This document shows positions 3-29,088 of a DNA stretch of 34,363 nucleotides, piece after piece. The DNA lies in NCBI GenBank assembly GCA_050943225.1, contig JBMNOT010000003.1, positions 1-34,363 of the forward strand, in the 5' to 3' direction. Position 1 is the first letter of the stretch. Each line of letters begins with the position of its first letter. The notes under the pieces are model-generated. The model was not told where the DNA came from and did not search any database. It saw only the letters and a list, made by a program, of their open reading frames with translations. Position numbers and translations under genes: made by a program. The DNA is from Christensenellales bacterium (GTDB lineage Bacteria > Bacillota > Clostridia > Christensenellales > SZUA-584).

Positions 3-1220
3 GCCAAAAAACAGACCGGGGTCAGCTCGTTGCTGCTTGGATACTATGAAGGGGGCGAGCTGGTCTACGCGGGTCGGGCGGGCACCGGATTTACGGCTCG
101 GACCATGCGCGAGCTTGAGGAGAAGTTTCGGGCCATCATCCGCTCTGTTTCGCCGTTTAGAGACGCGTCGAAGCCCCGGAAAGACGAGAAAACAATCTGG
201 CTGGAGCCTGTCTTGGTGGCGCAGGTTAGGTTCGCGGAGTGGACGCAAAGCGGCACATTGCGGCAGGCGAGCTTTAAAGGGCTGCGGGAAGACAAAAACC
301 CGAAAGATGTCAGAAGGGAGAATGGCGACGTGGAAACGGGAGCGCAGCACGAGGAGGAAAAACGGATGGAAACAAAGCGGACGAGCGTCACGATTCATGG
401 AGTCAGGATCAGCAGCCCGGACAAGGCCATGTATTCAGACCCCGTCATCACAAAGCAGGAGGTCGCGGAATACTATTCCGCCGTGGCGGAACGCATGCTC
501 CCGTACGTCGGCAACAGGATACTCAGCATCATCCGCTGCCCTAAGAGCATATCCGGACAGTGCTTTTATAAGAAGCATCCCGGGCCGGGCTCCAAGGGCG
601 TGATCAATGTGCCACTGGAGAAGGACGGGGAAACCAAGTACTATTTTTATATCGACAATGTATTCGGGCTAATTTCCGAGGTGCAGATGGGCACGCTGGA
701 GTTTCATATCTGGGGGAGCCGCGTGAGCCAGCTGGAGCTGCCCGATATGATGGTATTCGACCTGGACCCGGGGGAGGGGCTGGGGCTGGACAAAATCCGC
801 GAGGGCGTGCGGGACTTAAAACGTTTGCTGGACGAACTGGCGCTGGTGTCGTACCTGAAGACGAGCGGCGGCAAAGGCTATCATGTTGTGGTGCCGCTGC
901 AGCCTTCGGTGGGTTGGGAGGCTTTCAGCGAATTTGCCAAGCGCATTGCGGAAGTGATGGAGCAGCGCTGGCCGGACCGTTACACCAGCAACATCCGGAA
1001 GGACAAGCGGCAGGGCAAAATATTCATCGACTGGATAAGAAACAGCCGGGGCGCCACCAGTATAGCCCCGTATTCGCTGCGGGCGAGGCCGGGCGCTCCG
1101 GTTTCCATGCCCATCTCTTATGAGGAACTGGATAATATTGCGCCGGACGGCGTCAACCTTCACGGCGCTTTGCAGAGAATCGCAAACAGAGACCCTTGGC
1201 AGGGCTTTTTTCGACGTTAA
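3..1220 (+). CDS. ligD: DNA ligase D (NHEJ), 3' part: ligase OB-fold end plus primase-polymerase domain; 5'-truncated by the window
   Basis: Frame is open from the window start. Ligase C-terminal motifs LLLGYY..YAGRAGTGF and LRQASFKGLREDK are followed by LigD polymerase motifs (ISSPDK, FDLDPG, KTSGGKGYHV, IFIDWIRN, APYSLRARPGAPVSMP). Confidence 0.92.
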   Translation, partial: AKKQTGVSSLLLGYYEGGELVYAGRAGTGFTARTMRELEEKFRAIIRSVSPFRDASKPRKDEKTIWLEPVLVAQVRFAEWTQSGTLRQASFKGLREDKNPKDVRRENGDVETGAQHEEEKRMETKRTSVTIHGVRISSPDKAMYSDPVITKQEVAEYYSAVAERMLPYVGNRILSIIRCPKSISGQCFYKKHPGPGSKGVINVPLEKDGETKYYFYIDNVFGLISEVQMGTLEFHIWGSRVSQLELPDMMVFDLDPGEGLGLDKIREGVRDLKRLLDELALVSYLKTSGGKGYHVVVPLQPSVGWEAFSEFAKRIAEVMEQRWPDRYTSNIRKDKRQGKIFIDWIRNSRGATSIAPYSLRARPGAPVSMPISYEELDNIAPDGVNLHGALQRIANRDPWQGFFRR

Positions 1221-2008: not shown

Positions 2009-3505
2009 ATGGACGAAATCAAATTCACCGAAGTATTTGATGTCTGGCCGCTGCCAGCCATACTGGTCGATATCCGGACGGGGCGGATTATAAAGGTCAA
2101 TCAGACGGCATCCCAGCTCGGGCTGGCTGCCGGGTCGCTCTCGGATATTATAGAGCACGAAAACGCAGTGAAAGCGTTGCTGTCGGCCGGGATGACGCCT
2201 GCCAATCATCAGACAAACATCGTGACGGGAGGCTCTGTCCAGGTGGCATCGGCGGTGGTGCGGCGCGTCTGCATCAGCGGGCAGGATATGCAGCTCATCG
2301 TCATCACGTCGATGAAGGAGCCGGGGCAGGATAGAACCGACATACTGGCAACGCTTTGCGAGATATTTGCCGGCAACCAGAAGAACGCGCTGCGCTCGTT
2401 CCTGCAGGCGTCCGCAATGGATGTGGGCGCATTTTCGGCGGCAGTATATGAAAAAAGGAAGGAGCGCTATATCATACGCGATGAATGGCGCAGCAGGCGT
2501 ACGGTGAGCATATCGATACTGAGCACGGATTTTGATGCACATCCGGAGCAGGAGATGGCACGCATCGGGCAGATCAAGCGGGCAGCCGGGCTGGGGTATG
2601 CGCATTTCATCAAGTCCTACGGCACACAAGGTGTGCTTGTTTACTTCTTCGACCATGTTCCGGACTCGGCAGTGCAGCCGCTCATCGAGAAATTCGCGCG
2701 GCTGCTGCGCGCGCTGATGCCGGACGTGCCTCGGCATAGCAGCACGGCGGTAATCCGGCAGGGGCTGGATGCTCTGAGGCAGGGCATCGCCATATGGGAG
2801 AAGGAGACAAAAAAGCTGCTGTACGAGAACAAGGCCTATCACGCGCTGTTCGGCGGCGGCGTGCCGTTTCTGGAGGACCGCCGCGGCATCGGTCCCACGA
2901 CCTTTACCGACGGGGCGGGACGCCACTACAACCTGGTGCACACCGTCATCCGGACGGGCAGCCGGCGGCTGGTGGTCACCCACGCGGCTGACGTGACGCG
3001 CTATATGCTGACGGAGCAGAAACTGGCCATGACGGCCAAGACGGACCCGCTGACCGGCCTTTACAACCGGCGCGCGGGGCTGGAGATACTAGAGGAGACC
3101 TACAGCCGCAACCGCAAGTCAGGTCGCCCGCTGACGGTGGGCTTTGCGGATATCGACGGCCTGAAGCAGATTAACGACACATACGGGCACGGCGCGGGCG
3201 ACGCGATGATACGCTCGGTGGCGGATGTGCTGAAAAAGCATGTGGGGCCGGGTGGCACGGTATACCGGCTGGGCGGCGACGAATTCGTGCTGATACTGCC
3301 GGATGTCAATCAGGTGCAGGCCGCGCTGATAGCTGAGCAGATCAAAAATGGAGTCAAGAGGTGCTTTGCGGCCAGCATGCACAGCATATCCATCAGCTTC
3401 GGCTTCAAGCAGGCGGAATACACGCCGGAAGAGACCGCCGCTTCGCTGATAAATGTGGCGGATATGGATATGTACCGGGAAAAGAAGAACAAATCGGCCG
3501 ATTAA
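2009..3505 (+). CDS. GGDEF-domain diguanylate cyclase with unassigned N-terminal sensory (PAS-like) region
   Basis: TDPLTGLYNRR, DIDGLKQINDTYGHGAGD, YRLGGDEF and ADMDMYREK. ATG 2009 chosen because AAAGGTGG lies 8 nt upstream. Confidence 0.9.
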   Translation: MDEIKFTEVFDVWPLPAILVDIRTGRIIKVNQTASQLGLAAGSLSDIIEHENAVKALLSAGMTPANHQTNIVTGGSVQVASAVVRRVCISGQDMQLIVITSMKEPGQDRTDILATLCEIFAGNQKNALRSFLQASAMDVGAFSAAVYEKRKERYIIRDEWRSRRTVSISILSTDFDAHPEQEMARIGQIKRAAGLGYAHFIKSYGTQGVLVYFFDHVPDSAVQPLIEKFARLLRALMPDVPRHSSTAVIRQGLDALRQGIAIWEKETKKLLYENKAYHALFGGGVPFLEDRRGIGPTTFTDGAGRHYNLVHTVIRTGSRRLVVTHAADVTRYMLTEQKLAMTAKTDPLTGLYNRRAGLEILEETYSRNRKSGRPLTVGFADIDGLKQINDTYGHGAGDAMIRSVADVLKKHVGPGGTVYRLGGDEFVLILPDVNQVQAALIAEQIKNGVKRCFAASMHSISISFGFKQAEYTPEETAASLINVADMDMYREKKNKSAD

Positions 3506-4368
3506 CGCTTAACCAGGCCGCTGTGGATGAGAATCTGGTCGATCTCCTCGGCTTTGTTCATCGTGTAGAGATGAAATTTGTTGATACCGTGCTCCATCAG
3601 CAGGGCGATCTGCCGGACCGCATATTCCAGGCCGGCTTTTTTAAATTCCTCCGGCTGCTCGCCGTAGCGGCAGATGATCTTGCTGAGCGGCGCGGGGATG
3701 GAGCAGGCGGAGAGCAGCGCCATGCGGATGATCTGGTTGGGGTTCAGCACCGGCATGATGCCCGTCACCACCGGCGTCTTGACGCCCTCCTTATAGAGCC
3801 GTTCGTACAGGTTTATCACGGCGCCGGTGTCGAAGCACAGCTGCGTGATAAACAGGTCCACGCCGAGCTGCGCTTTTAACTTCATATATTCAATATCCTG
3901 ATCCAGCGATGGGCTTTCCACATGCGCTTCCGGATAAGCAGCAGCTGCCACGATAAAGCTGGGGCGTTTTTTGATTTCAGCTATCAGGTCGGTTGCGTGG
4001 CGGTAGTGCGTGAAGGCGGTCTCGCGGTCCATGCCCGCCGGTACGTCGCCGCGCAGCGCCAGCACATTCCGAACGCCTTTTGCCTTCAGCGTGTCCAGTA
4101 TTTCGGAAATCATGGCGGGGGTTGCGCCCACGCACGTCAGGTGGGCGATGGCGTTAAGGCCCATCGAACTCACCTGGGAGACGACGTCCAGCGTGCGGTC
4201 GCGGTTGCCGCCGCCCGCGCCATATGTTACGCTGACAAATACGGGCCGCCGAACAGCTAGCCGGTCGATGGCAGAAAAGACGGTGGACATGGGCATATCC
4301 TTTTTTGGCGGAAAAAATTCAAGGGAAAACGCGCTTTCTTTGGCGATTAGCTGCCGGATAATACCCAT
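3502..4368 (-). CDS. metF: Methylenetetrahydrofolate reductase
   Basis: FSLEFFPPK, SVTYGAGG, AHLTC, LALRGD, AAYPEAH, ITQLCFD, HLYTMN. ATG 4368 follows AGGAG. Stop overlaps the convergent GGDEF stop (TTAA, 3502-3505). Confidence 0.92.
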   Translation of the reverse strand: MGIIRQLIAKESAFSLEFFPPKKDMPMSTVFSAIDRLAVRRPVFVSVTYGAGGGNRDRTLDVVSQVSSMGLNAIAHLTCVGATPAMISEILDTLKAKGVRNVLALRGDVPAGMDRETAFTHYRHATDLIAEIKKRPSFIVAAAAYPEAHVESPSLDQDIEYMKLKAQLGVDLFITQLCFDTGAVINLYERLYKEGVKTPVVTGIMPVLNPNQIIRMALLSACSIPAPLSKIICRYGEQPEEFKKAGLEYAVRQIALLMEHGINKFHLYTMNKAEEIDQILIHSGLVKR

Positions 4369-4477
4369 AGACCTGCTCTCCTGTGATTTTTTATATCGCA
4401 TAGTTATGAACAGTGTTATTTAACCATAAAGCCGGGATGCTTGCAAGTGGTTGAATAATGGCGAAAGAAGGTGTATC

Positions 4478-5095
4478 ATGGCTGAGAGGTGTGCCATGGA
4501 GGTTTTCCCGTATCTGCCGTTTGTGCCGGATAGAAAAACAGTGATGCGGCGGCTGGGTTCGCAAAGAGCGTCGCTGCCCGCGGAGCTATCGGATAATATC
4601 GATGCGCTGTTGCGGCAGGCGGAATCCGCTTTCACGGTACGCGCAAAGGCTGCGGTTTTTCCGCTGGAACATCTGGACAGCGCGCATGTCAGCGTCGCAG
4701 GGGCAGTGGTGGAATCGGCCATGCTCGCGCGGCTGCTGGAAAAAAGCTCTGCTGCCTATGTGATGGGGGCTTCCATCCCTGCGCGGGATGTGGAAAAGAT
4801 CAGCGGGGCCATGCGGGCCGGGGAAGGGCTGAAAGCCATCGTGTTCGACGCGTATGCTTCCGAATATGTGGACGGCGTGCTGGACGTGATTATTGCCCGC
4901 AAGAACGAGGCATTAAGGCGCACCGGGCAGAAGTTGACGAAACACCGGTTCAGCCCGGGCTATGGTGACCTTGACATCTCATATCAGAAGGTGTTTTACG
5001 ATCTGCTGGATATGCAGACGCTGGACGTGACGATAAATGAAAACTATCTGCTGTCGCCGGAAAAATCGGTGATTGCAATAGCCGGAGTGGAGTAA
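4478..5095 (+). CDS. Stand-alone methionine synthase (B12) reactivation-domain protein
   Basis: DAYASEYVD, RFSPGYGDL and LSPEKSVIAIAG; abuts metH. Start could be 4478 or 4496. Confidence 0.85.
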   Translation: MAERCAMEVFPYLPFVPDRKTVMRRLGSQRASLPAELSDNIDALLRQAESAFTVRAKAAVFPLEHLDSAHVSVAGAVVESAMLARLLEKSSAAYVMGASIPARDVEKISGAMRAGEGLKAIVFDAYASEYVDGVLDVIIARKNEALRRTGQKLTKHRFSPGYGDLDISYQKVFYDLLDMQTLDVTINENYLLSPEKSVIAIAGVE

Positions 5096-7468
5096 TTGAA
5101 GACGATAGACGGACTTAATTTTCTGGACTTTCTGAAACATCGCATCATGGTGCTGGACGGCGCAACAGGCACCGCGCTGCAGCACAGCGGCATGGGCCCC
5201 GGCGTTTGCCCGGAGCTGTTTGCGCTGGAGCATCCCGGGATTTTAACCGATGTGCAGCGGCGGTATATAGACGCCGGAGCGCAGGCGATATATACGTTCA
5301 CGATGGGCGCGAACGCGCATAAGCTGAGCGAGTTTGCGCTGCGGCACGACGTGCGCCGCATCAACGCGGAACTGGCTGCGCTGTCCGTCAAAGCGGCGGG
5401 GAGCCACGCTTTCGTCGGCGGCGACGTCAGTTCTACCGGCTCGTTTCTGGCGCCGCTGGGCGATCTGGAATTTGAGCAGGCGGTGGACATATACCGGGAG
5501 CAGATATCCGCTTTGGCGGAAGCCGGTGTGGATTTCATCGTGATCGAGACGATGATTGACATCCAGAAGGCGCGCGCCGCGGTGATTGCCGCCAAGGAGT
5601 GTTGCGACCTGCCGGTGGTGGCGAGCATGACGTTTGATACCCACGGGCGGACGCTGACCGGCACCAGCCCGGCAGCCGCCGCCATGACGCTGATTTCGGC
5701 CGGAGCTGACGTGGTGGGGCTCAACTGCTCGACGGGTCCGGCGGAGATGGTGCCGCTGGTGGAAGCGATGAAGGCGGTATCCAGCGTGCCGCTGCTGGTC
5801 AAGCCCAACGCGGGCATGCCGCGCATCGAAAACGGACGGACGCTGTTCGATATGTCGTGCGAACAGTTCAGGGCATACATTAAGCCGCTCTGTGAGGCGG
5901 GCGCCAACATGATCGGCGGCTGCTGCGGTACGGACCCGGACTATATACGGGCCATTTCCGACGAGGTTGCTTCGTTTTCGCCGATGCCGTGGCGGGAGGA
6001 GATGCCGGCGGCGCTGACCTCGGTATCCGATGAGGTGTATATCGGCAAAAGCTTCGCCGTGATCGGCGAGAGGATAAACCCTACCGGCAAACCCAAGCTT
6101 AAGGAAACGCTGCGCGCCGGCCATTTCTACGAGGTGCTGGACATGGCGCTGGAGCAGAAGGACAACGGCGCACACATACTGGACGTCAACGTGGGGCTGC
6201 CTGGCGCTGACGAAATGCAGCTGATGAAAAAAGCCATCGAGATGCTGTCGGTGAGGGCCAAGCTGCCGCTTTCCATCGATTCTTCCAATCCCGACGTCAT
6301 CGAAAAAGCGCTGCGCATCTATCCGGGACGCGCGCTGGTCAACTCGATGTCTGCCAAGGCCGAGCATATAAATGCGCTGCTGCCCCTGATACGGCGCTAT
6401 AAGCCGATGTTCATACTGCTGCCCATCGGCGAGGGCGGTATTCCGCAGACCGCCGAAGGCCGCATCGCTGAGATTAAGGCGGCTTATGAGACAATCGCGG
6501 CGGCGGGCAGCGGCAAGGACAGCATACTGGTGGACGGACTGGTGATGGCCGTTTCCTCTGACCCCAAGGCCGCGAAAGAGACGCTCAAGGTGGTCCGGTG
6601 GTGCACGGAGAACGGTTTTCATACCGTGCTGGGCATATCCAACGGCTCTTTCGGCTTGCCGGAGCGCCGCTTCCTCAACGCGGCGTATCTCGTGATGGCG
6701 ATGGGCTGCGGCCTTTCCGCCGCCATCATGAACCCCAACGACAAGCTGATGATGGATATGTGTTTCGCGGCCCAGGCGTTGACGGAACGTGACGAGGGTT
6801 TTGCGCAATACATCAGGCGGTTTGGCGAAACACAGGCGCCGGAGACGGAGACGGCCAGCGTGACGGACGCCATACTTACCGGCAAGAAAAAGATTATCGC
6901 GGCGCTAATCGACGCGGAGATTGCGGGCGGCGCCACGCCCGAGGCCATTATCAACGACATGATTATACCGGCGCTGCGCAGGGTGGGCGACCTGTATGAG
7001 CAGCGCGTGTACTACCTGCCGCAGCTGATATACAGCGCCGAAGCGGCGCAGGCTGCCTTTGGCTATCTGGAGCGGCATTTTGCCCCGGCCAGTTCCACGG
7101 CTAAAAAGAAAATCGTGATGGCGACGGTAAAAGGTGACATCCACGACATCGGCAAAAATTTGGTGGCAATGCTGATGAAGAACCACGGGTTTGAGGTGAT
7201 CGACCTCGGCAAGGACGTGCCCGCGCAGACCATCGTGGACACGGCGAAACAGCACGACGCCGATGTCATCGGCTTGTCAGCCCTGATCACGACGACGGCG
7301 CGCGAGATGGAAAAGGTGGTGCGGATGGTCCGCGAAGCGGGCCTCAGAGCCAAAGTGATCGTGGGCGGCGCGGTGATTACAGAAGATTATGCCAGGAGCA
7401 TTGGCGCTGACGCCTACGCCCCCGACGCGGCGGGCGCGGTGAAAGCGGTATCAAAGCTGCTGGAATAA
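5096..7468 (+). CDS. metH: Cobalamin-dependent methionine synthase (homocysteine, pterin and B12-binding domains; no activation domain)
   Basis: VLDGATGT; Zn ligands GLNC and GGCCG; IGERINPTGK; DVNVG; B12 motif VKGDIHDIGKN..GLSAL..VGGA. TTG start directly after the upstream stop. Confidence 0.93.
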   Translation: MKTIDGLNFLDFLKHRIMVLDGATGTALQHSGMGPGVCPELFALEHPGILTDVQRRYIDAGAQAIYTFTMGANAHKLSEFALRHDVRRINAELAALSVKAAGSHAFVGGDVSSTGSFLAPLGDLEFEQAVDIYREQISALAEAGVDFIVIETMIDIQKARAAVIAAKECCDLPVVASMTFDTHGRTLTGTSPAAAAMTLISAGADVVGLNCSTGPAEMVPLVEAMKAVSSVPLLVKPNAGMPRIENGRTLFDMSCEQFRAYIKPLCEAGANMIGGCCGTDPDYIRAISDEVASFSPMPWREEMPAALTSVSDEVYIGKSFAVIGERINPTGKPKLKETLRAGHFYEVLDMALEQKDNGAHILDVNVGLPGADEMQLMKKAIEMLSVRAKLPLSIDSSNPDVIEKALRIYPGRALVNSMSAKAEHINALLPLIRRYKPMFILLPIGEGGIPQTAEGRIAEIKAAYETIAAAGSGKDSILVDGLVMAVSSDPKAAKETLKVVRWCTENGFHTVLGISNGSFGLPERRFLNAAYLVMAMGCGLSAAIMNPNDKLMMDMCFAAQALTERDEGFAQYIRRFGETQAPETETASVTDAILTGKKKIIAALIDAEIAGGATPEAIINDMIIPALRRVGDLYEQRVYYLPQLIYSAEAAQAAFGYLERHFAPASSTAKKKIVMATVKGDIHDIGKNLVAMLMKNHGFEVIDLGKDVPAQTIVDTAKQHDADVIGLSALITTTAREMEKVVRMVREAGLRAKVIVGGAVITEDYARSIGADAYAPDAAGAVKAVSKLLE

Positions 7469-7493: not shown

Positions 7494-8213
7494 ATGAACA
7501 TTGAAATTGACACCCACACGCACACCGTGCTGTCGGGGCATGCCCATTCCACGCTGATCGAGAATGCGGCATGGGCGAAAAAAGCGGGGCTTTCTGGCTT
7601 CGTGGTGACAGACCACGGCCCGGCGATACCGGGTGCGCCCCCGGATTTCAACCTCTCGACCTTAAGATACCTGCCGGAGAGCATCGACGAGGTACGCGTG
7701 TACCACGGAGTAGAAGCCAACATTGTGGACTTTGAGGGCACGCTGGATATCCGCGAGAAGTATCTGAAGCTGACCGAGTTTGCCATCGCCGGAATCCACG
7801 AGGTCGTGCTCCGCTCCGGCGGCAGGAGCAGGGATACCGATGCGGTGATAGCCGCACTGCAGAATAAGTACGTGGATACCATTTCCCACCCGGACAACCC
7901 GAGCTATTCGCTGGACTATGAAGCGGTGGTCAAAGAAGCTGCCCGGCAAAACAAGCTGCTGGAAGTCAACGACCATTCCCTTGACTTCCGCCCGGGCGGT
8001 CTGGAAAACGCGCATATTTTTCTGCCGCTGTGTGTCCGGTACGGCGTGCGTGTCGTGGTGTCCAGCGACGCGCATTCGGCGTTCGGCATGGGCAAGTTTG
8101 ACACGGCGCTGCGCGCGCTGGAAAAGCTTGATTTTCCGGAAGAGCTCATCGTGAACGCGACAAAGGAACGGTTTGAGGCCTATCTGGCAGAACGCAGCAG
8201 GCGGGTTGGCTGA
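7494..8213 (+). CDS. PHP-family phosphoesterase (YcdX-like)
   Basis: DTHTHT..SGHAHST, TDHGP, GVEANI, SHPDNP, LEVND, SSDAH. Confidence 0.88.
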   Translation: MNIEIDTHTHTVLSGHAHSTLIENAAWAKKAGLSGFVVTDHGPAIPGAPPDFNLSTLRYLPESIDEVRVYHGVEANIVDFEGTLDIREKYLKLTEFAIAGIHEVVLRSGGRSRDTDAVIAALQNKYVDTISHPDNPSYSLDYEAVVKEAARQNKLLEVNDHSLDFRPGGLENAHIFLPLCVRYGVRVVVSSDAHSAFGMGKFDTALRALEKLDFPEELIVNATKERFEAYLAERSRRVG

Positions 8214-8226
8214 AAGAGCCCGCCCT

Positions 8227-8252
8227 TGCTTATGCTGACATGCTTATGCTGA
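8227..8252. repeat. 12-bp direct repeat tgcttatgctga (period 14), possible regulator site
   Basis: Copies at 8227-8238 and 8241-8252, upstream of the promoter at 8299. Confidence 0.6.
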
Positions 8253-8298
8253 ACACGCCAGAGAGTAACATGTAAAATTGTTCGCAGTGCTAAAAACT

Positions 8299-8326
8299 TT
8301 GATACCCATATGCACCGGTTTATGAT
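8299..8326 (+). promoter_or_regulatory. Sigma-A-type promoter for the fusion gene-galE unit
   Basis: TTGATA-N16-TATGAT in an AT-rich intergenic region; an alternative extended -10 (TGA TACTAT) overlaps it. Confidence 0.5.
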
Positions 8327-8406
8327 ACTATATAGACATCATTATTATTCATTTCATTATTAATGATATCAGGAATCATACATACGTATTACGGAGGTTT
8401 TTTGGA

Positions 8407-11400
8407 ATGGATATGGTAATGGAGAAAATTGGCGCGTTGAAAGAGGAGAGGTCTTTCAAGAACCTTTACTCGATCATATGCAGCCATGGCGACGCCGTTG
8501 CGGTGGAGTACCAGGAAGATGGCGAAATTCGCAAACTCACATATGCCGACTATGAGCGCATTTCAGTGGTCGCTGCGGATAAACTGTCCCGCCTGTTGGA
8601 CGGCACCGAGAAGAATACGTTTGTGGCGCTGCGGCTGCCCAACAGCCCGCTTTGGCCCGTGGCTTTCTGGGCGATCATTATGGCCGGTTACCGGCCGCTG
8701 CTGGTGGACGCAAATGCGGACGATGCGGCGGTGATACATATACTGCGCCAGGCCGGATCGCGCACCATCGTGACGGATTCGCCGGTGAACGTGGGCGGTG
8801 TGAAGGTGATCAAGGCTGATTCGTTCCTCAGCCTGGATGCACAGACCACTTCTTATATCCCCGTGTTTGGCGACGCCATCGCGCTGTGCACTTCGGGTAC
8901 CACCGCGACGCCCAAAGTCTACGTATACAAGGAAGATGCCATCTGCGAGCAGGTACTGCTTGCCGAGTACATCTATCAGAACAACCAGGACATCATCCAT
9001 AACGGGTCCATCAAGCAGCTGGCGTTTCTGCCATTCCACCATATATTTGGCCTGATTGCCGTGTATTTGTGGTATACGTTTTTCGGCAAGACAATCGTCT
9101 ATATCAAAAACCGCACTGCGGATGTGATACTCTCGGCCTGCAAGGAACACAAGGTGACGCATATTTACGCCGTGCCGCTGCTGTGGAACAACGTGGCCAA
9201 GGGTATAGTGCGCAAGGCAAAGCTGCAAGGCGAAGAGGTTTACGACAAGCTGATGAACGCCAGCGACCTTAGCATAAAGCTGCAGAGGCGTCTGGGCAAG
9301 ACGGGCCGCAAGCTGGTTTCCAAGCTGTTCTTCAAGGACCTGCAGCAAAAACTGGTGGGCGACAGCATCCAGTTTATGATCAGCGGCGGCGGGCATATCC
9401 AGCCGGAAACGCTCAAGATCATCAACTCGATAGGTTACCCGCTGGTGACCGGCTTCGGCATGACGGAAACGGGCATCGATTCGGTGGAACTGTCGGACGA
9501 CATCGACAGGAAGCTGGACGCCAGCGTGGGCAAGCCATTTGCGCCGATGCAGTACCGCATTGTTTACGAGCGCCCGGGTGACAAGACAGGCGAGCTGCAG
9601 ATATACGGCAAGGCGATGCATTCGGGCCGCATGGTGGACGGTGTGTATATTCCGCGCGAAGACGGCTGGTTTTCCACCGGGGATATTGCGCGCGAGGAGA
9701 ACGGGCGTTTTTACATCGAAGGCCGCTTAAAGGACGTAATCGTGGACGAATCCGGCGAGAACGTGTATCCCGACGAGCTGGAGGACAGCTTTTCAGAGCT
9801 GCCGTACGTGGAGCATATGTGCGTGGCCGGCATTGCGACCAAGGGCGTGTACGACGACATCGCGCTGGTCGTCTATTTGGGCGAGCACACCGGCTCTGCC
9901 GAAAAAACCAGCGAGCTTATCGCGGAGATCGTGCGCATCAACGGCCTTTTGCCCATCTATAAGAAACTGAGGCGCGCGTACATTTCGCTGGACCCGCTGC
10001 CGCTGGCCAACGGTATCAAGGTGCGCCGGCAGAAAGTGAAGGAAGCGCTGGAGCGTGGTCAGGGCCGATTCCAGGAGATCGATGTGCGCGGCGGCGTCAT
10101 CAAGGATGCCGTGAAGCCGGAGCCGGGTCAGCCTGCCGCAAACGGCGTGGTATATAACGGCGCCGAGTATCAGGAGATCAAGGAAAAGGTGCGCCAGATA
10201 TTTGCGGAAGTACTGGGCGTGGAACCTTCTTCCATCAAGGATACCGACCATTTCGTGGAGGACCTGGGCGGCGACAGCCTGTCCAGCCTGGGCGTTTTCT
10301 CCAAAGCGGAGGAGATGTACGGCATCATCATTCCGGATACCGAGTATTTCTCCTGCGCCACGGTGGAGGACTTTGCCAAGCTGCTGTACCGCAAGCTCAA
10401 CAATCTGGAGGCCAAGGCGCCGGAGACGCGGCGCGAAGCAGTGCGCAGGATTACCGATTTCCGCTCGTCACGTGAATACGCCGAATACGCGCAGCGCCGC
10501 CTGAGCATGCAAGACGCGGGCATCAAGGACCCCTATTTCGTGGCGCACGATTCGGTGCTGAGCGATACTTCCATTGTGGCGGGCCGCGAAGTGATCAACC
10601 TGGCGTCGTATAACTACGTGGGCATGTCGGGTCACCCGCGTACGGTAGAAGCTGCCAAGAAGGCGATCGATATGTACGGCACGTCGGCTTCCGGTTCGCG
10701 GCTGATCGCTGGGGAGAAAACGCTGTACCGTGAACTGGAGAAAGTGATTGCTCAGTGGAAGCACACCGACGACGTGCTGGTGATGGTGGGCGGCCATTCC
10801 ACCAACGTCACGTTCGTGGGCAATTTCTGCAACGAGCACGACCTGATACTCTACGACGCGCTGTCGCACAACTCCATCCTGCAGGGCTGCCAGCTCTCGA
10901 GAAGCGACACCAAGGCTTTTCCGCACAACGATATCGACGCGCTGGAGCACCTTTTGAAGGCAGCGCGCGACAAATACGAGAAAATCCTTATCGTCGTGGA
11001 AGGCGTGTATTCGATGGACGGCGACATCGCGCCCATTCCGGATTTTGTGGCGCTCAAAAAGAAATACGGCGCTTTCCTGATGGTGGATGAAGCGCACTCC
11101 AGCTGCGTGATCGGCAAACACGGCGGCGGCGTGGACGACTATTTCGACCTGCTTCCCGGAGACATCGACATTAAGATGGGTACGCTCTCCAAGGGCCTCG
11201 GCACGTGCGGCGGATATATCGCCGGCGAGCAGAGCCTTATCGACTACCTGCGCTACTCGCTGCCCGGCTTTATGTTCTCCGTGGGCATCAGCCCGCCGCT
11301 GGCCGCTGCGGCGCTGGAGGCCGTTAAGATCATGATGGAGGGCAATCCGCGCGTTGCGGCGCTGCATGAAAACATCAAGTATTTTGTGGAAGGCGCCAAG

Positions 11401-11667
11401 CGGCGCGGCTTTGACACCTGCCTGGCCAAGGAGACGGCGATCATCCCGATCATGGTGGGCGAGGACAACGATGCGTACGAGCTGTCCACGCTGATGCTGG
11501 AGCACGGCGTGTTCGTGCCGCCTGCGGTCTACCCGGCGGTGCCCCGCCATCAGGCGCGGCTGCGGTTCTGCGTGATCAGCGAACACAAGAAGGAACAGCT
11601 GGACTACGCGCTGGATACGCTGGACAAGCTGTTCGCACAGAAAGGGATATTCAAACAGATAAGATAA
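8407..11667 (+). CDS. Tri-domain protein: long-chain acyl-adenylate-forming domain + acyl carrier protein + PLP-dependent alpha-oxoamine synthase (SPT/AONS family)
   Basis: Adenylation motifs CTSGTTATPK, FLPFHH, GFGMTE, WFSTGD, GRLKDVI..GENVYP. ACP motif DLGGDSL (Ser624). AOS motifs NLASYNYVG, SASGSR, EGVYSMDGD, VDEAHS, GTLSK (Lys929), ARLRF. SD GGAGG. Confidence 0.9.
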   Translation: MDMVMEKIGALKEERSFKNLYSIICSHGDAVAVEYQEDGEIRKLTYADYERISVVAADKLSRLLDGTEKNTFVALRLPNSPLWPVAFWAIIMAGYRPLLVDANADDAAVIHILRQAGSRTIVTDSPVNVGGVKVIKADSFLSLDAQTTSYIPVFGDAIALCTSGTTATPKVYVYKEDAICEQVLLAEYIYQNNQDIIHNGSIKQLAFLPFHHIFGLIAVYLWYTFFGKTIVYIKNRTADVILSACKEHKVTHIYAVPLLWNNVAKGIVRKAKLQGEEVYDKLMNASDLSIKLQRRLGKTGRKLVSKLFFKDLQQKLVGDSIQFMISGGGHIQPETLKIINSIGYPLVTGFGMTETGIDSVELSDDIDRKLDASVGKPFAPMQYRIVYERPGDKTGELQIYGKAMHSGRMVDGVYIPREDGWFSTGDIAREENGRFYIEGRLKDVIVDESGENVYPDELEDSFSELPYVEHMCVAGIATKGVYDDIALVVYLGEHTGSAEKTSELIAEIVRINGLLPIYKKLRRAYISLDPLPLANGIKVRRQKVKEALERGQGRFQEIDVRGGVIKDAVKPEPGQPAANGVVYNGAEYQEIKEKVRQIFAEVLGVEPSSIKDTDHFVEDLGGDSLSSLGVFSKAEEMYGIIIPDTEYFSCATVEDFAKLLYRKLNNLEAKAPETRREAVRRITDFRSSREYAEYAQRRLSMQDAGIKDPYFVAHDSVLSDTSIVAGREVINLASYNYVGMSGHPRTVEAAKKAIDMYGTSASGSRLIAGEKTLYRELEKVIAQWKHTDDVLVMVGGHSTNVTFVGNFCNEHDLILYDALSHNSILQGCQLSRSDTKAFPHNDIDALEHLLKAARDKYEKILIVVEGVYSMDGDIAPIPDFVALKKKYGAFLMVDEAHSSCVIGKHGGGVDDYFDLLPGDIDIKMGTLSKGLGTCGGYIAGEQSLIDYLRYSLPGFMFSVGISPPLAAAALEAVKIMMEGNPRVAALHENIKYFVEGAKRRGFDTCLAKETAIIPIMVGEDNDAYELSTLMLEHGVFVPPAVYPAVPRHQARLRFCVISEHKKEQLDYALDTLDKLFAQKGIFKQIR

Positions 11668-11680
11668 TGAAGGTGAAGTT

Positions 11681-12661
11681 ATGAAGGTGTTGGTTTCAGG
11701 CGGCGCCGGCTATATCGGCAGCCACGTGGTCAGGCAGCTTCAGCGCAGCGGCCATGAGGCGGTGGTGCTGGACAATCTGTCCAAAGGCCACCGGCAGGCC
11801 GTGCGGGATGCCATTTTGGTGGAGACGGACCTGCTGGACAAGGCCGGGCTTGCCCGCTGCTTTGCCGAGCACCGCGTGGACGCGGTGATGCACTTCGCGG
11901 CGCGCAGCCTTGTGGGCGAGTCCATGCAGATGCCGTACGAATACTACGAGAACAATGTGGTCGGCAGCCTGAATCTGGTTAAGGCCGCGATGGACGCGGG
12001 CGTGGACAAGTTTATTTTCTCGTCCACGGCGGCGGTGTACGGCGAGCCGGATGAAGTTCCGATACCGGAGACTGCTCCCAAAGCGCCGCTCAACGTGTAC
12101 GGCAGGACCAAGCTGATGATCGAGAACATGCTGGAGGACTTCTCCAATATATACGGCCTGCGTTACAAGGCGCTGCGCTATTTCAACGCGGCGGGTGCGG
12201 ACGCGGAGGGCGATATCGGAGAGGACCATACTCCCGAGACGCACCTCGTGCCCATCATATTCCAGTATGTGAACGGGCGGCGCGACAGGTTGTGCGTGTT
12301 TGGCGACGACTACGACACGCCGGACGGCACCTGCATCCGCGACTATGTTCACGTGACCGACCTTGCGGACGCGCACCTGCTGGCGCTGGAGGACCTTGCG
12401 CGCGGCGGCGAAAGCTGTGCGTACAACCTGGGCAGCGAGGCGGGCTATTCCGTGCTGGAGATCATCCGCGCCGCATCCGAGGTGGTGGGGCGGCCCATCG
12501 ATTACGACATTGCTCCGCGACGCCCGGGCGACCCGGCGAAACTGGTGGCGTCGTCCGCGAAGATCAAAGCGGAACTGGGCTGGCAGCCGCGCTTCGGCAT
12601 CCGCGATATACTCGCCAGCGCGTGGCGGTTTCACAAGGCCCATCCCGACGGATACAGATAA
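11681..12661 (+). CDS. galE: UDP-glucose 4-epimerase
   Basis: GGAGYIGSH, FSSTAAVYG, YGRTK, LRYFNAAGA, IGEDH.PETHL, FGDDYDTPDGTCIRDYVHV, RRPGDP. Confidence 0.93.
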   Translation: MKVLVSGGAGYIGSHVVRQLQRSGHEAVVLDNLSKGHRQAVRDAILVETDLLDKAGLARCFAEHRVDAVMHFAARSLVGESMQMPYEYYENNVVGSLNLVKAAMDAGVDKFIFSSTAAVYGEPDEVPIPETAPKAPLNVYGRTKLMIENMLEDFSNIYGLRYKALRYFNAAGADAEGDIGEDHTPETHLVPIIFQYVNGRRDRLCVFGDDYDTPDGTCIRDYVHVTDLADAHLLALEDLARGGESCAYNLGSEAGYSVLEIIRAASEVVGRPIDYDIAPRRPGDPAKLVASSAKIKAELGWQPRFGIRDILASAWRFHKAHPDGYR

Positions 12662-12672
12662 TGAAATAACGC

Positions 12673-12708
12673 AAAAGCCCAAACCGGATTCTCGGTGCGG
12701 GCTTTTTT
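12673..12708 (+). terminator. Intrinsic terminator after galE
   Basis: AAAAGCCC-AAACCG..CGGTGC-GGGCTTTTTT hairpin with a U-tract. Confidence 0.75.
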
Positions 12709-12743
12709 GTTTTGCGTGCAATCAGGCTCACACGCCGCGAACG

Positions 12744-12814: not shown

Positions 12815-13375
12815 ATGGCAGAGATCAGGGTGCCTTTCTGCGCGACCACGGAGCTTACGCCGCCCTTTACGTTGGATGAAACTTATTCGGAACCCAATGG
12901 CGTGAAAAGCGTGCTGTTTGACACCAGCCGCCTTAAAATTGCGTGCAGGGTGGAGCCGGTAGAGGTGCCGGGCATCGGAGAAGTCAGCGTGGGCATTTAC
13001 CACCTGATAGGCACCATATCCTATATATGCAACGCCTTTCCGGTGGTGCGCAGCAAAGAGACCCACAGCATTGAGCAGCAGACGGCAACGTTTAACGCGG
13101 ACTTGGGCAACGAGGCGTCGGCATGCGTGGTGCCTTCGGCGTCTGCGCCGCAGGGCTGGATATCAGCGGCCGGCTTTGTCAGCGTGGACGCGCCGGTGGG
13201 CGGCAGCTGCAGCATGGAAAAGCCGCCCGTCGTGGAAGAGGTGACGGTGGACGATCTGGCGGTATCGGTCAACACGAGCGACGGCATGGCTCCCACCTGC
13301 ATTGACTCGTGCGGTGAAGAGGAAAAGCATGTGGTCAAGTGGCGCGGGTGCTTTGTCATCAAAACCGGGAATTAA
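12815..13375 (+). CDS. Cys-containing hypothetical protein, probably spore coat/exosporium related (resembles Bacillus thuringiensis P19/Orf1-type proteins)
   Basis: SD GAGGAGG; 8 Cys; motif order VPFC..FD.S.L..G.V.V....L.G.ISY..N..V.VD..VTV.DL..HVVKW.G.F. The family resemblance is from memory. Confidence 0.55.
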   Translation: MAEIRVPFCATTELTPPFTLDETYSEPNGVKSVLFDTSRLKIACRVEPVEVPGIGEVSVGIYHLIGTISYICNAFPVVRSKETHSIEQQTATFNADLGNEASACVVPSASAPQGWISAAGFVSVDAPVGGSCSMEKPPVVEEVTVDDLAVSVNTSDGMAPTCIDSCGEEEKHVVKWRGCFVIKTGN

Positions 13376-13607: not shown

Positions 13608-13720
13608 CGCAGAGCCAATACGCCTCGGGGCCTGTCACCACCGGCAGGCCTTTTGACTGTGCTATAAGCCGCCGGCAGCGTGATGACAGGACCGACCAAT
13701 CCACATGACGGAGGGTGGAA

Positions 13721-14356
13721 ATGATCAGATTACATAACCAAACCGCCGCCCGGATGACATATGCCGTGCCGCCTGTTGTGCAGCGGCCCGAATGGATCAC
13801 AACCCGCCAGAAATGCCCGCTGATCTGGGAGATCAGCAGCGCGCCGGTGGGTACGGCAGATGAGGAAAAGGAAGCCTTAGATGCAGCGCTGCAGGAGACG
13901 GCAGACGAGACTGCCGAGGTGCAGCCAGAGGAATCCGGGCTGCGCGCATACGGCTGCGCATATCACGGCACCGCCCAGCGTCTGACGGTATCCCGGCCGG
14001 GAGAGCGCGTGAGAGTGCGGTTCGGCAGCCATAGCTGCTTAAAGCGCATGGGCCACGCCGAGGACGGCGCCGGGCTTGTCGTGCAAGAAGCGGGCGATTA
14101 CGAAATCACGTTTGAGCTGTGTGCCGCTGTGAAGGCTGCGTCGCCCATCACGTTTGAGCTGGCGGCGGGAGAGGAGAAGGTACCCGGCGGCACAGTCACC
14201 GCCATCTTGCCCGGCGGCATCCGGCAATACTGCTGCAGCGTGATGGCCCCGCTGCGGGCAGGCGACTGCGTCGGCGTTGTGATGACGTCCGCATCGGTCT
14301 GTGGGGCGGAATTTACAGCAAACGGCGCCAGGCTGATGATAAAAAAGCTGGATTAG
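13721..14356 (+). CDS. Hypothetical protein with C-terminal BclA_C/C1q-like beta-sandwich; possible exosporium protein
   Basis: SD GGAGG before ATG 13721. Pattern LVVQEAGDYEITF..LRAGDCVGVVM..ARLMIKKLD is typical of BclA C-terminal-like domains. No collagen repeat. Confidence 0.55.
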   Translation: MIRLHNQTAARMTYAVPPVVQRPEWITTRQKCPLIWEISSAPVGTADEEKEALDAALQETADETAEVQPEESGLRAYGCAYHGTAQRLTVSRPGERVRVRFGSHSCLKRMGHAEDGAGLVVQEAGDYEITFELCAAVKAASPITFELAAGEEKVPGGTVTAILPGGIRQYCCSVMAPLRAGDCVGVVMTSASVCGAEFTANGARLMIKKLD

Positions 14357-20687: not shown

Positions 20688-21650
20688 ATGAAAAACTATG
20701 ATGTGGTGGCGCTGGGTATAGCCGTTATGGATATAGTGGCGGCCCCGGTGGATAAAAACCTTTTCGAGTACAACAAAACGCCGGTGGACAGCGTGATACT
20801 GGCGCCGGGCGGCGACGCGGCCAACCAGGCGGCGCATCTGGCGCGGCTGGGGTGGCGCACAGCGCTGTGCTGCCGGCTGGGCGAAGACGCGCTGAGCCGC
20901 ATGTTCACGGCGGAGCTTGCCGCCGGCGGCGTGGACTTGTCGCACGCGGCGGTATCGCCGGAATCCGTGATGACTGCGGCTGTCGTGCTGGTGGCGGCGG
21001 ACGGGCAGCGCAGCATACTGCACCGCCGCGGCAACAATTACGACTTTTGCCGTGAGGATGTGAACCTAGACGTGATTGCCGGAGCGAGAGCGCTGACAGT
21101 GGGCAGCATATACGGCTGCCCCAAACTGGACGAGGACGGGCTGGAGCAGATACTTGCCCACGCCAAAGCGCACGGCGTGATGACGTTTGCGGACATGGCG
21201 ACGGATAAGCGGGGACTAAAGCTCGCAGGCATAAAGCCTTTGCTGCCGTATGTCGACTGGTTTTTGCCCAGCGAAGCGGAGAGCCGCTACCTGACGGACG
21301 GCATGGATTGCGAGGAGGCTGCTCGAGTATTCCTGGACATGGGCGTGCGCAACGTGGTCATCAAGCTGGGCGCGCGGGGCGCGTACGCCTGCGGCGAGGG
21401 CTTTGCGGGCTACGTGGACGCGTTTGACATCGACGCGGTGGATACCACTGGCTCGGGCGACGCGTTCTGCGCGGGGCTGATCCACAGCCTGCTCAGCGGG
21501 CAGGGCGCGGAGGAGGCGCTGACGTTCGCCTGCGCCTGCGGCGCGTATAACGCGCTTTACAGGGGCGCGGCTGCGGCCACGCTGAACCGATTTACGGTCG
21601 AAAATTTCATCAGGAAAACAGGCCGCCGTTTGGCCGGCGGAAGGAGATAG
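20688..21650 (+). CDS. PfkB-family carbohydrate kinase
   Basis: APGGDAANQA..LARLG, PSEAE, VIKLGARGA, VDTTGSGDAFCAG. Confidence 0.9.
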   Translation: MKNYDVVALGIAVMDIVAAPVDKNLFEYNKTPVDSVILAPGGDAANQAAHLARLGWRTALCCRLGEDALSRMFTAELAAGGVDLSHAAVSPESVMTAAVVLVAADGQRSILHRRGNNYDFCREDVNLDVIAGARALTVGSIYGCPKLDEDGLEQILAHAKAHGVMTFADMATDKRGLKLAGIKPLLPYVDWFLPSEAESRYLTDGMDCEEAARVFLDMGVRNVVIKLGARGAYACGEGFAGYVDAFDIDAVDTTGSGDAFCAGLIHSLLSGQGAEEALTFACACGAYNALYRGAAAATLNRFTVENFIRKTGRRLAGGRR

Positions 21651-21651
21651 C

Positions 21652-23136: not shown

Positions 23137-23164
23137 GGCATACGGGCATTTGAGCCCGGCAAAT

Positions 23165-23192
23165 AAAGGGAAAACAGCCGCCCGGGTCGAAT
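23165..23192 (+). promoter_or_regulatory. Candidate sigma-H promoter for glgBCDA
   Basis: AAAGGGAAA-N12-GTCGAAT versus sigma-H RnAGGAwww-N11/12-RnnGAAT. Confidence 0.5.
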
Positions 23193-23257
23193 ACACAAAG
23201 CAACGCAGTCGAAAGGAAAGTACGAAACCTGCTATGCGGAAAGGAAGGTTTCGGGGC

Positions 23258-25285: not shown

Positions 25286-26393
25286 GATCATCGACTTTCC
25301 CCTGTCCAACTGCACCAACTCCGGCATCGACACGGTGGGCGTGCTAACGCAGTACCAGCCGCTGGAGCTCAATTCCTACATCAGCACCGGCGCTCCATGG
25401 GATCTGGACAGCAACACGGGCGGCGTTTTTATACTGCCGCCTTACCTTAAGGCAGAGCGCGGCGAATGGTATTCCGGCACAGCCAATGCCATCTATCAGA
25501 ACAGCTTTTTTATCGACAAGTTCGACCCGGATTATATACTGGTGCTTTCGGGCGATCACATATACAAGATGGACTACAACGCCATGCTCAAGTTCCATAT
25601 CAAGACGGAGGCGTCGGCCACCATCGCGGTGATCGAGGTGCCCATCGAGGATGCGTCCCGCTTCGGCATCATGAACACCGACGAAAATTTCCGCGTGATC
25701 GAGTTTGAGGAAAAGCCTGCAAAGCCCAAGAGCAACCTTGTCTCGATGGGCGTGTACATATTTAACTGGCGCACCGTCAAGGCGTATCTTCAGGCGGACG
25801 CTGAGGACAAGAATTCCACTAACGACTTCGGCCGCGATATCATACCCAAGATGCTGGCGGCGGGCGAGCGGATATTCGCTTACCGGTTCAAGGGCTACTG
25901 GAAGGACGTCGGCACGGTGGAGAGCCTGTGGGAGGCCAACATGGAGCTGCTGCAGGACCGCCCGGCGCTGAACCTGCACGACCCGTCGTGGAAGATACTG
26001 TCCCGCAACCCCAACCAGCCGCCGCACTTTGTGGGCGACGGGGCCAAGATTTCTACCAGCCTTGTTTCGGAAGGCTGCCGCATATACGGCACGGTGGAGC
26101 ATAGCGTGCTGCTCCCCGATGTGACCATCGAAGCGGGGGCATATGTACGCGACAGCATCATCATGGAGAAGACAGTGGTGGGCGAGGGCTGCGAGATTAT
26201 CAGCACCATTATCGACGAAGGCGCAACGATAGGGCGCGGCTGCCGAATCGGCGGCGACGGGAAGATCACTGTGATCGGGCAGGGTGCAGCGCTGTCCGAC
26301 GGCATGGTGGTGGAGCCGGGCGTATCCATACAGCCCGACTGCAGGTTCGTCAACGACGTCTGCGAAAGCGGAGGTGCAGTGGCAAATGATTAA
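25170..26393 (+). CDS. glgC: Glucose-1-phosphate adenylyltransferase, catalytic subunit
   Basis: [72 protein letters not shown] start with GAGGTGAGG upstream. Confidence 0.95.
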
Positions 26394-27507: not shown

Positions 27508-27508
27508 T

Positions 27509-28999: not shown

Positions 29000-29025
29000 T
29001 ATAAGGAAATACGATCCTGCCGGAA

Positions 29026-29054: not shown

Positions 29055-29088
29055 AGCTGCAATAAACAAAGACCCCGGAGGGCTGTCA

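Follow-up and report, generated by a model that had tools for sequence, protein, structure and literature searches.

What does an anaerobic-digester bacterium of the order Christensenellales make with an enzyme that seems to activate an acid, carry it and condense it with an amino acid on one polypeptide chain? The question is raised by a stretch of 34,363 nucleotides, here called the window in its whole length, from contig JBMNOT010000003.1 of assembly GCA_050943225.1 (GTDB lineage Bacteria; Bacillota; Clostridia; Christensenellales; SZUA-584). In it, a single open reading frame (ORF) encodes an adenylating domain, a carrier domain and a pyridoxal 5'-phosphate (PLP)-dependent alpha-oxoamine synthase (AOS) domain, and is followed by galE. 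An earlier note, made from the letters of this DNA without database searches, had suggested that the protein could convert a free fatty acid plus an amino acid into a 3-keto long-chain base. This tri-domain enzyme is genuine, conserved and unnamed. Judged by sequence comparison, its PLP domain is neither BioF, Kbl nor a canonical serine palmitoyltransferase (SPT), and belongs to a clade of its own. By analogy with known systems, it is probably a self-contained loading-and-condensing enzyme with a lipid-like amino-ketone as its product.

All three domains lie where the earlier note had placed them, as do the carrier serine Ser624 in GGDSL and the DEAHS and GTLSK929 motifs (Table 1), and a GGAGG is found 8 nt 5' of the ATG. 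The first domain belongs to the adenylate-forming ANL enzymes by family match, by invariant core motif columns and by its fold: acyl-CoA ligase models extend over its C-terminal subdomain as far as about aa 552, and an AlphaFold model of aa 1-570 (mean pLDDT 87.2) is recognised by Foldseek as an ANL fold (E 1.8e-28). The second is a carrier domain by its PF00550 match and its invariant GGDSL, with GGDSLS encoded at 10267-10284 and the codon of Ser624 at 10276-10278. The third is an alpha-oxoamine synthase by a match along the whole domain (178.4 bits to PF00155, model positions 2-361 of 361 covered), by matches to about 50 AOS chains of the PDB and by its catalytic Lys, His, Asp, His and Arg; DEAHS corresponds to aa 894-898, and GTLSKG is encoded at 11179-11196, with the codon of Lys929 at 11191-11193.

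Comparison of 15 diverse homologues revealed invariant columns in each domain: T162-S163-G164-T165-T166, G351-M352-T353-E354, D426, G439-R440, K442 and K538 in the adenylating domain; L620-G-G-D-S-L625, including S624, in the carrier; and H821, D894, H897, T926, S928, K929, R1051 and R1053 in the PLP domain. The columns of K929, H821, D894, H897 and R1053 are common to the family, to E. coli BioF and Kbl and to the SPT references described below. We take these residues, from studies of BioF, Kbl and SPT, to be the Schiff-base Lys, the PLP-stacking His, the Asp and His of D-x-x-H and the carboxylate-binding Arg, and the adenylation columns presumably represent the P-loop-like TSGTT..K, GxGMTE, TGD and GRxKD motifs and the C-terminal catalytic Lys.

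Table 1. Features of the window around the tri-domain gene, with positions counted from its first letter.
Feature	Position	Strand	Details
MTHFR	3502-4401	-	
214-aa ORF	4451-5095	+	
MetH-like protein	5096-7468	+	790 aa
PHP-domain protein, upstream neighbour	7494..8213	+	NF006702 260.5 bits (cut-off 264)
Promoter-like sites upstream of tri-domain ORF	8250..8360	+	three sigma-70-like matches, in a 193-nt gap
Tri-domain ORF (adenylating domain, carrier domain, alpha-oxoamine synthase)	8407-11667	+	3261 nt, 1086 aa, ATG start
Adenylate-forming (ANL) domain	8449..10071	+	~aa 15-555; Pfam AMP-binding (PF00501) aa 27-406, E 1.7e-44, 152.7 bits
Carrier (PP-binding) domain	10183..10386	+	aa 593-660; Pfam PF00550, E 7.6e-15, 55.4 bits
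PLP-dependent AOS domain	10588..11622	+	aa 728-1072; Pfam PF00155 Aminotran_1_2, E 3.2e-52
galE, UDP-glucose 4-epimerase	11681-12661	+	326 aa; TIGR01179 446.8 bits (cut-off 262.3)
Intrinsic terminator after galE	12668..12714	+	hairpin, then T tract
Glycogen synthase	27509-28999		only glycosyltransferase found in the window

The suspicion that such a fusion could be an assembly artefact, raised in the earlier note together with a search for the same architecture, was rejected. The same three Pfam families occur in 117 of the 120 best database hits, most of them of 1064-1119 aa. The 22 genomes of the same genus comprise 13 with an uninterrupted full-length gene, two in which contig ends divide it, two with fragments, one (G013) with only the adenylating and acyl carrier protein (A-ACP) part, and four with nothing more than generic domain hits. 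The tri-domain gene is also present in a genome of the sister genus (G023), the A-ACP part alone in another family genome (G024), and three of the 16 genomes from other families of the order have it at full length, with pieces in one that is 51% complete. Moreover, contigs from an independent DNA run (X2) span 8200-10875 and 10846-12331 with one differing letter each, and thus both the domain junctions and the junction with galE are bridged by an independent assembly. At least 90% of the sampled words of this DNA were found in each of 13 sequencing runs, X2 among them, from eight studies other than the possible source, labelled digester, bioreactor or plain 'metagenome'.

A pattern scan with one genome per species gave at least 618 related stretches, from which 78 loci were kept. 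Among them, tri-domain genes occur in metagenome-assembled genomes (MAGs) labelled Clostridia, Christensenellales/Christensenellaceae, Oscillospiraceae, Saccharofermentanales/Mageeibacillus and Clostridiaceae, AOS-only or ACP-AOS forms of 54-64% identity in MAGs labelled Tissierellia, Clostridia and Oscillospiraceae, and tri-domain proteins of about 1140-1200 aa in Pirellulales; two further loci (L053, L080) are frame-broken or split full-length genes. No A-domain gene was found within about 6 kb in 11 loci of AOS-only or ACP-AOS members. Cultured carriers are Guopingia tenuis, Clostridium sp. 19966, Caloramator quimbayensis and Clostridium thermarum. The distribution of the family is patchy. 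When 300 further Clostridia genomes of at least 90% completeness were sampled evenly and the two best candidates of each were scored, a single genome gave a match at E <= 1e-200. All homologues bear generic names, either 'aminotransferase class I/II-fold PLP-dependent enzyme' or '8-amino-7-oxononanoate synthase/acyl carrier protein'.

Some occurrences fall outside the expected taxa. The tri-domain genes of L031 and L064 (MAGs labelled Bacteroidales and Cryptobacteroides), which pair with each other at a support of 99, and of L048 (Planctomycetota) lie inside the Clostridial AOS clade, reflecting either gene transfer or mis-binned contigs, and one 76%-identical homologue is labelled Burkholderiales.

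With three intact and conserved domains, the sequence acid, acyl-AMP, acyl-S-carrier and alpha-aminoketone is the natural reading, and the general chemistry of the enzyme is secure. The ANL domain would adenylate a free acid, most likely a fatty acid of medium or long chain, and the acyl group would be moved from acyl-AMP to the phosphopantetheine on Ser624 of the enzyme's own carrier domain. The arm itself could be installed by a Sfp-type phosphopantetheinyl transferase (PPTase) of the host (217 aa, AASDHPPT_N and ACPS domains, contig C226), whose gene was found at the contig end (L123) in a cluster resembling that of a non-ribosomal peptide synthetase (NRPS), together with the end of an adenylation domain, a carrier protein and a condensation domain. 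The PLP domain, through a Schiff base on Lys929, would then condense the acyl-S-carrier with an alpha-amino acid, with loss of CO2 and release of a 2-amino-3-keto compound; a fatty acid and Ser, Ala or Gly would give a 3-keto long-chain base. In about a third of the distant family members, an adjacent short-chain dehydrogenase (SDR) resembling KdsR would turn the ketone into the amino alcohol. The domains, their catalytic residues, the conserved fusion, its phylogenetic placement and the gene neighbourhoods are shown here, whereas we infer which acid and amino acid are used, what is made from them and what becomes of it. Of the note's proposal the three intact domains in order stood; the substrates remain putative, and no clear orthologue of the linked reductase was found in the host.

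The profile of the adenylating domain ranked FadD13 of M. tuberculosis first among PDB entries (146.6 bits), with MenE practically level, and its best NCBIfam matches are long-chain-fatty-acid-CoA ligases, weakly scored. In Foldseek, the ANL subtypes have near-equal E-values, and a protein-atlas search with aa 1-570 returned only generic 'AMP-binding enzyme' clusters. A fatty acid as the acid substrate is thus suggested mainly because of the context in relatives' genomes, namely a DegV protein, the KdsR-like SDR and a thioesterase-like gene.

To place the PLP domain, it was compared with E. coli BioF, E. coli Kbl, five Bacteroidales SPTs that score above the NF047600 cut-off and five alphaproteobacterial proteins (L114-L118, 456-539 bits), called here SPT-like as none of 41 genomes passed the NF047603 cut-off, the Caulobacter control included. 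The earlier note had considered DEAHS and GTxSK nearer to SPT and PKS-embedded domains (PKS, polyketide synthase) than to BioF, and the references read as it claimed: VDDAHG and VTFGK in BioF, VDDSHA and GTLGK in Kbl, VDDAHS and GTFSK in the Bacteroidales SPTs, and VDEAHS and GTFSK in the SPT-like proteins. Identity over the AOS domain was also highest with the Bacteroidales SPTs among the references used (35-38%, against 30% for BioF, 32% for Kbl and 30-33% for the SPT-like proteins). Within the family it is 58-89%, and to the Planctomycete forms 46-50%. At aa 820-823 (nt ~10864-10875), the family and its Planctomycete sister have S-H-N-S. The PLP-stacking His is thus followed by Asn, in place of the Ala that stands there in BioF, Kbl and every SPT reference (H-A-S); this Asn may be related to the use of a carrier-bound rather than a CoA-bound acyl group.

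Against NCBIfam, the domain scored 340 bits for bioF (TIGR00858, cut-off 426.45), 336 for TIGR01825 (535), 320.2 and 270.4 for Kbl (NF005394, 460; TIGR01822, 493), 314.3 for SPT-CFB (NF047600, 640), 288 for SPT-beta (NF047599, 500), 247.6 for SPT (NF047603, 670), 254 for ALAS (339) and 158.6 for the CqsA-type model (NF005526, 428). In the PDB, 8s1y/7poa scores highest (252.5 bits, aa 722-1082), with chains of Kbl and SPT next. Kbl identity was rejected on the two scores and the 32% identity, and no threonine dehydrogenase partner was found among the 25 ORFs of the window that were scanned.

In an AOS tree of 45 rows (IQ-TREE quick search, LG+C20), the 22 rows of the Clostridial family form one clade, with 99 in the Shimodaira-Hasegawa-like approximate likelihood ratio test (SH-aLRT). 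Its sister group is made up of the Planctomycete tri-domain proteins, among them Pirellulales proteins of about 1140-1175 aa, and of synthases, stand-alone or PKS-embedded, of Myxococcales, Actinoplanes, Sneathiella and a Bacteroidetes MAG; both groups are joined at a support of 99 with a stem of 1.16. The Bacteroidales SPTs, the alphaproteobacterial SPT-like proteins, BioF and Kbl are placed elsewhere. Forcing the family into an exclusive clade with the Bacteroidales SPTs gave p 7.6e-94 in the approximately unbiased (AU) test, and forcing it together with E. coli BioF cost 25.3 log-likelihood units (AU p 0.029), the groups having been named in both cases after the tree was seen. Canonical SPT identity was therefore abandoned, since the domain is below the NF047600, NF047599 and NF047603 cut-offs and outside the SPT and SPT-like clades. 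Of the note's expectations, that of a domain apart from BioF held, with carrier-linked and PKS-embedded synthases as its nearest relatives, whereas the SPT-type reading failed in scores, tree and AU test alike.

The same data bear on biotin synthesis, in which pimelate would be loaded on the carrier and condensed with alanine in a BioF-like reaction to 8-amino-7-oxononanoate, the protein being an analogue of a BioW-BioF fusion. Such a natural fusion is described in PMC9544090; no NCBIfam model scores higher than bioF, some homologues bear the JGI name '8-amino-7-oxononanoate synthase/acyl carrier protein', and in one locus (L021) a BioY transporter lies two genes downstream. However, the bioF score is below its cut-off, identity to E. 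coli BioF is 30%, the tree disfavours a common clade, bioA, bioB and bioD all lack a match above cut-off in the 92.6%-complete host assembly (G000), and the neighbours of the family are a KdsR-like SDR and DegV rather than bio genes. This function is very improbable.

As for the amino acid, cysteate instead of serine, alanine or glycine would lead to capnine or a base of the sulfonolipid type. Cysteate acyltransferases belong to the same superfamily, the PDB entry 28eh ('Cysteate-C-fatty acyltransferase') matches the PLP domain at 169 bits, and SDR-type 3-ketocapnine reductases exist (PMC11211663). The 28eh match is, however, weaker than those of SPT, Kbl and ThAOS-type chains, and no cysteate-synthesis gene was noticed among the neighbours, a genome-wide search not having been made; we regard cysteate as very unlikely.

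What the product becomes is suggested above all by the neighbours of the gene in more distant relatives. They were counted in 49 Clostridial-family loci with called genes on both sides, with a greedy ORF caller that prefers the longest frame, and which took a 341-aa antisense frame over galE; counts are therefore approximate and probably low. The commonest neighbour is an SDR of about 270 aa, adjacent on the same strand in 15 of these loci and within four genes in 17, all of them below 80% AOS identity to the window protein. It overlaps the tri-domain gene by 4 nt in some cases (L043, L050), and it appears in several subclades of the AOS tree (L022 and L038, L037, the AOS-only L063, L068, L078), AOS-only members at 58-64% identity also adjoining it (L063, L068, L070, L078). 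For two of these linked SDRs, the best NCBIfam model is NF049977 KdsR, matched end to end with 225.7 and 212.1 bits (cut-off 400). The 3-ketodihydrosphingosine reductase BT_0972 is a characterised enzyme of the KdsR type (PMC9278070). Besides, a gene for a protein of the DegV fatty-acid-binding family (TIGR00762, 263.7 bits) adjoins the synthase gene or lies at most four genes away in 5 of the 49 loci, and a hotdog thioesterase-like gene stands divergently at position -1 in five. The KdsR-like SDR and DegV beside the genes of relatives thus support a keto long-chain base. For the family, the reading with the best support is that of a sphingoid-like long-chain base as product, to which we give a confidence a little better than even.

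A different fate would be that of a small signalling molecule or secondary metabolite rather than a membrane-lipid base: a short, medium or unusual acid would give an aminoketone on the way to an alpha-hydroxyketone-type autoinducer, a pyrazine or a pyrrole, with the SDR of the relatives serving that route. An SDR takes part in the formation of CAI-1, and GGDSL is, we presume, a carrier motif of the NRPS/PKS type. The nearest clade contains PKS-embedded synthases (L088 of Myxococcales, 2286 aa; L099 of Actinoplanes, 1795 aa), the patchiness of the family is what is often seen in accessory metabolism, and the CqsA-type model does recognise the AOS domain, although at a score far under its cut-off and under those of the BioF, Kbl and SPT models. 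Conservation over the AOS domain is, however, unusually high for secondary metabolism, no recurring tailoring, export or regulator cluster was found in the family neighbourhoods, the SDR has KdsR and not a quorum-sensing reductase as its best match, and the DegV neighbours point to fatty acids. A signal or secondary metabolite is an unlikely alternative to the long-chain base.

Several observations weigh against the long-chain base itself. The hits of the adenylating domain are weak and mixed, FadD13 (146.6 bits) being followed closely by MenE (145.6 bits), and Foldseek puts aryl-acid ligases first, with FadD13 and the Thermus long-chain fatty acyl-CoA synthetase (LC-FACS) only 24th and 25th. 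The equivalog scores of the PLP domain all fall below their cut-offs, the highest raw one being that of bioF. An SDR within four genes is missing in 32 of the 49 family loci, and the neighbourhoods show no recurring gene for an N-acyltransferase, a ceramide synthase or a head group. A clear orthologue of the linked reductase was not found in the host assembly. Finally, contigs from RNA libraries (X15 and X16, from one sample, and X17), which may hold DNA and are not proof of transcription, reach the adenylating region and galE only in part, at 8555-9479, 9742-9893, 10038-10098 and 11733-12709; none covers the AOS region 10200-11590, which, given the possible DNA in the libraries, is not evidence of silence.

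In the host genome, the best matches to NF049977 are of 122.3 bits (partial) and of 115.3 bits on C62, and for the partial one the EF-P aminopentanone reductase YmfI or FabG is a better explanation than KdsR. The best host ORF reaches 163.5 bits against a profile of the linked SDRs, for which family members score 190-395. Since no convincing orthologue was obtained, the reductase step is not accounted for in this genome, and because no reductase partner was found the end product is less certain here than in the family. In the window, for which the earlier note had stated that bio genes, a ketosynthase (KS) domain, a reductase and a glycosyltransferase are lacking, the scan of 25 ORFs gave neither a KS domain nor a bio gene, and neither a glycosyltransferase of the glycolipid type nor a classical SDR.

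The host possesses, besides the tri-domain protein, a stand-alone AOS of 409 aa (contig C251, 5737-6966, minus strand; L119). Its best model is the Bacteroidetes-type SPT NF047600 (557.9 bits, cut-off 640; Kbl 401, bioF 397), it groups weakly with the Bacteroidales SPTs (SH-aLRT 81), and it lies beside a flavodoxin-like gene and that of a CotH/LTD protein. This SPT-like gene exists in nearly every kin genome, and NF047600 matches of 512-597 bits occur in 41 of the 300 sampled Clostridia genomes and in 22 of their 176 genera; among 14 control genomes only B. thetaiotaomicron matches at that threshold. The A-ACP-only genes of G013 (L023:7968-10064) and G024 (L024:7992-10058; L025:7905-9974) encode proteins of 688-698 aa with 60-68% identity and no AOS remnant downstream, that of G013 having an IS200-type transposase just upstream. 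Both genomes retain the stand-alone SPT-like gene, and therefore it is conceivable that the A-ACP part loads that SPT-like enzyme in trans.

The downstream neighbour of the tri-domain gene poses a separate question. As the earlier note had observed, galE begins 13 nt after its stop codon, in the same orientation, and one terminator follows both genes: the hairpin at 12668-12711 (-20.4 kcal/mol, z -4.1; none of 200 shuffles folds as well) was found by direct folding, a simple terminator scan with a loop limit of 3-8 having missed it. In the host, galE would thus be co-transcribed with the tri-domain gene. Opposite galE, an antisense open frame (11696-12721, minus strand, 341 aa) is a typical spurious frame of G+C-rich DNA. 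The pairing is found in G000, G014, G011, G007, G005 and G023, that is, 6 of 14 kin genomes, while it is absent from G017, G022, G018, G015, G003, G008, G021 and G020. No distant relative has it, save for a GalE-like extended SDR on the other side of the gene, at position -1, in L036 (TIGR01179 186.8 bits, below the cut-off of 262.3). The operon stands in this genome, while the galE link turns out to be lineage-bound.

Were the operon a functional one, GalE would supply UDP-galactose for a glycosylated amino-lipid. The short gap, the shared orientation and terminator, the kin genomes that keep the pair and the sub-threshold gene of L036 speak for it. Nevertheless, the only glycosyltransferase of the window is glycogen synthase, the 8 kin genomes and the distant family do without the pairing, and unpaired kin carry a GalE elsewhere (51-54% identical). 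Moreover, the adjacent galE is the only close GalE in the G000 assembly and in four of the five kin genomes checked, and so must serve general metabolism. Galactosylation is on these grounds very unlikely. Taking into account that the pairing is lineage-bound and that this gene is usually the sole GalE, it looks like a chance position of a housekeeping gene, and the link is probably incidental, galE being probably the ordinary epimerase of the cell, brought there by rearrangement.

Upstream, the gene order is fixed in the genus (GGDEF protein, MTHFR, 214-aa ORF, MetH-like protein, PHP protein, tri-domain gene), and it is the downstream side that varies. MTHFR, the 214-aa ORF and the MetH-like protein form a block whose synteny with the tri-domain gene extends over the whole genus. 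Alignment of the MetH-like protein to the metH model stops at position 857 of 1182, so that the C-terminal reactivation part is lacking. In 14 loci the PHP gene directly precedes the tri-domain gene in the same orientation; except for L021 (49% identity), these loci are all from near kin. In the window, 193 nt with promoter-like sites separate it from the tri-domain ORF; membership of the PHP protein in the system is doubtful. These promoter-like matches are no commoner than in shuffled sequence (four found, mean 3.0), and are only a hint of a promoter separate from that of the PHP gene.

The rest of the window contains genes of other kinds. At its start (3-1220, plus strand) lies the C-terminal part of a LigD-type protein, with the ATP-dependent ligase C-terminal region and a primase-polymerase domain, cut by the window start. 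After the terminator, two small ORFs on the plus strand (12815-13375 and 13715-14356), which weakly match CryBP1 (26.4 bits) and, under the cut-off of 38, the C-terminal domain of BclA (26.7 bits), may encode spore-surface or exosporium-type proteins. From 20688 to 34362 (plus strand) there is a same-strand run of glycogen/starch genes: a PfkB kinase, 4-alpha-glucanotransferase, branching enzyme, two ADP-glucose pyrophosphorylase-like genes, glycogen synthase, phosphorylase, an alpha-amylase family protein and phosphoglucomutase.

Long-chain-base synthesis in bacteria is documented for Bacteroidota and Proteobacteria, and several known systems resemble the tri-domain enzyme. In Caulobacter and the Rhodobacteria (PMC9386255), AasR loads a fatty acid with ATP on the dedicated carrier AcpR, and the PLP synthase Spt then uses the acyl-carrier thioester, in the same order of steps. 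This trio is the closest working analogy, here fused: the tri-domain protein has all three functions on one chain and occurs in Gram-positive-type Clostridia, whereas its PLP domain is outside the SPT clades and below all SPT cut-offs, and its use of serine is putative. In Bacteroides, SPT and the KdsR reductase BT_0972 (PMC9278070) find their likeness in the synthase-SDR pairing of 15 of the 49 family loci, although the linked SDRs reach 212-226 bits against a cut-off of 400 and the host has no clear KdsR-like gene. The tri-domain synthase, moreover, is predicted to rely on its built-in carrier and activating domain instead of on acyl-CoA. The enzyme of 8s1y/7poa, the top PDB match, differs likewise, being a stand-alone, acyl-CoA-using synthase without carrier or activating domain.

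Assembly lines offer a further comparison. SxtA, PigH and RedL contain carrier-fed AOS domains, and in a prodiginine-type cluster of Streptomyces griseoviridis the orders A-CP-KS-AT-AOS (A, adenylating; CP, carrier protein; AT, acyltransferase) and CP-CP-AOS are given in Table 2 of PMC3870968. As in them, the acyl group would come from a covalently neighbouring carrier, and the phylogenetic neighbourhood is shared; the tri-domain protein, however, lacks KS, AT and extension domains, and no biosynthetic cluster surrounds its gene. The single-chain A-CP-AOS build itself has a precedent. In 2013, proteins of Microscilla marina (A1ZVW4) and Blastopirellula marina (A3ZWL3) were tabulated as uncharacterised A-CP-AOS proteins, and one of Synechococcus PCC 7002 (B1XHP8) was modelled (PMC3870968); these have the same three-domain build as the Clostridial protein, and the accessible text gives no known product for any. 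In that text the Clostridial clade is not listed, 'Clostridi' having no occurrence and 'Firmicutes' one, in a list of phyla, and full-text literature searches, which do not cover subscription journals, returned no study of a Clostridial enzyme with this build. By descent, the closest relatives are the carrier-fed synthase domains of assembly lines and the A-CP-AOS proteins of 2013.

Taken to the level of the organisms, it is a tentative proposal, which we consider rather doubtful, that sphingoid-type long-chain bases are made by a clade of strict anaerobes among the Clostridia of digesters, rumen and gut, most of which bear the labels Christensenellales, Clostridia or Oscillospiraceae in public records. 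Their route would differ in build from all those known: a single chain would capture a free, possibly exogenous, DegV-delivered fatty acid, tether it and join it to an amino acid, and a KdsR-like reductase would complete the base. Many Clostridia, the host among them, also have a stand-alone synthase with its closest likeness in the Bacteroidetes SPT. If the proposal is true, Gram-positive-type anaerobes would be an unrecognised source of sphingoid or 1-deoxysphingoid lipids in the gut and in engineered ecosystems, and activation, carriage and condensation by one chain would be a third and compact solution beside the acyl-CoA-using SPT and the AasR/AcpR/Spt route. Since it would need ATP, a free acid and an amino acid, but no CoA thioester, it would also be an attractive biocatalyst for alpha-aminoketones. 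Should the product be a signal or another small molecule, this would still be a conserved enzyme, altogether without a name of its own, in bacteria that abound in digesters and rumen.

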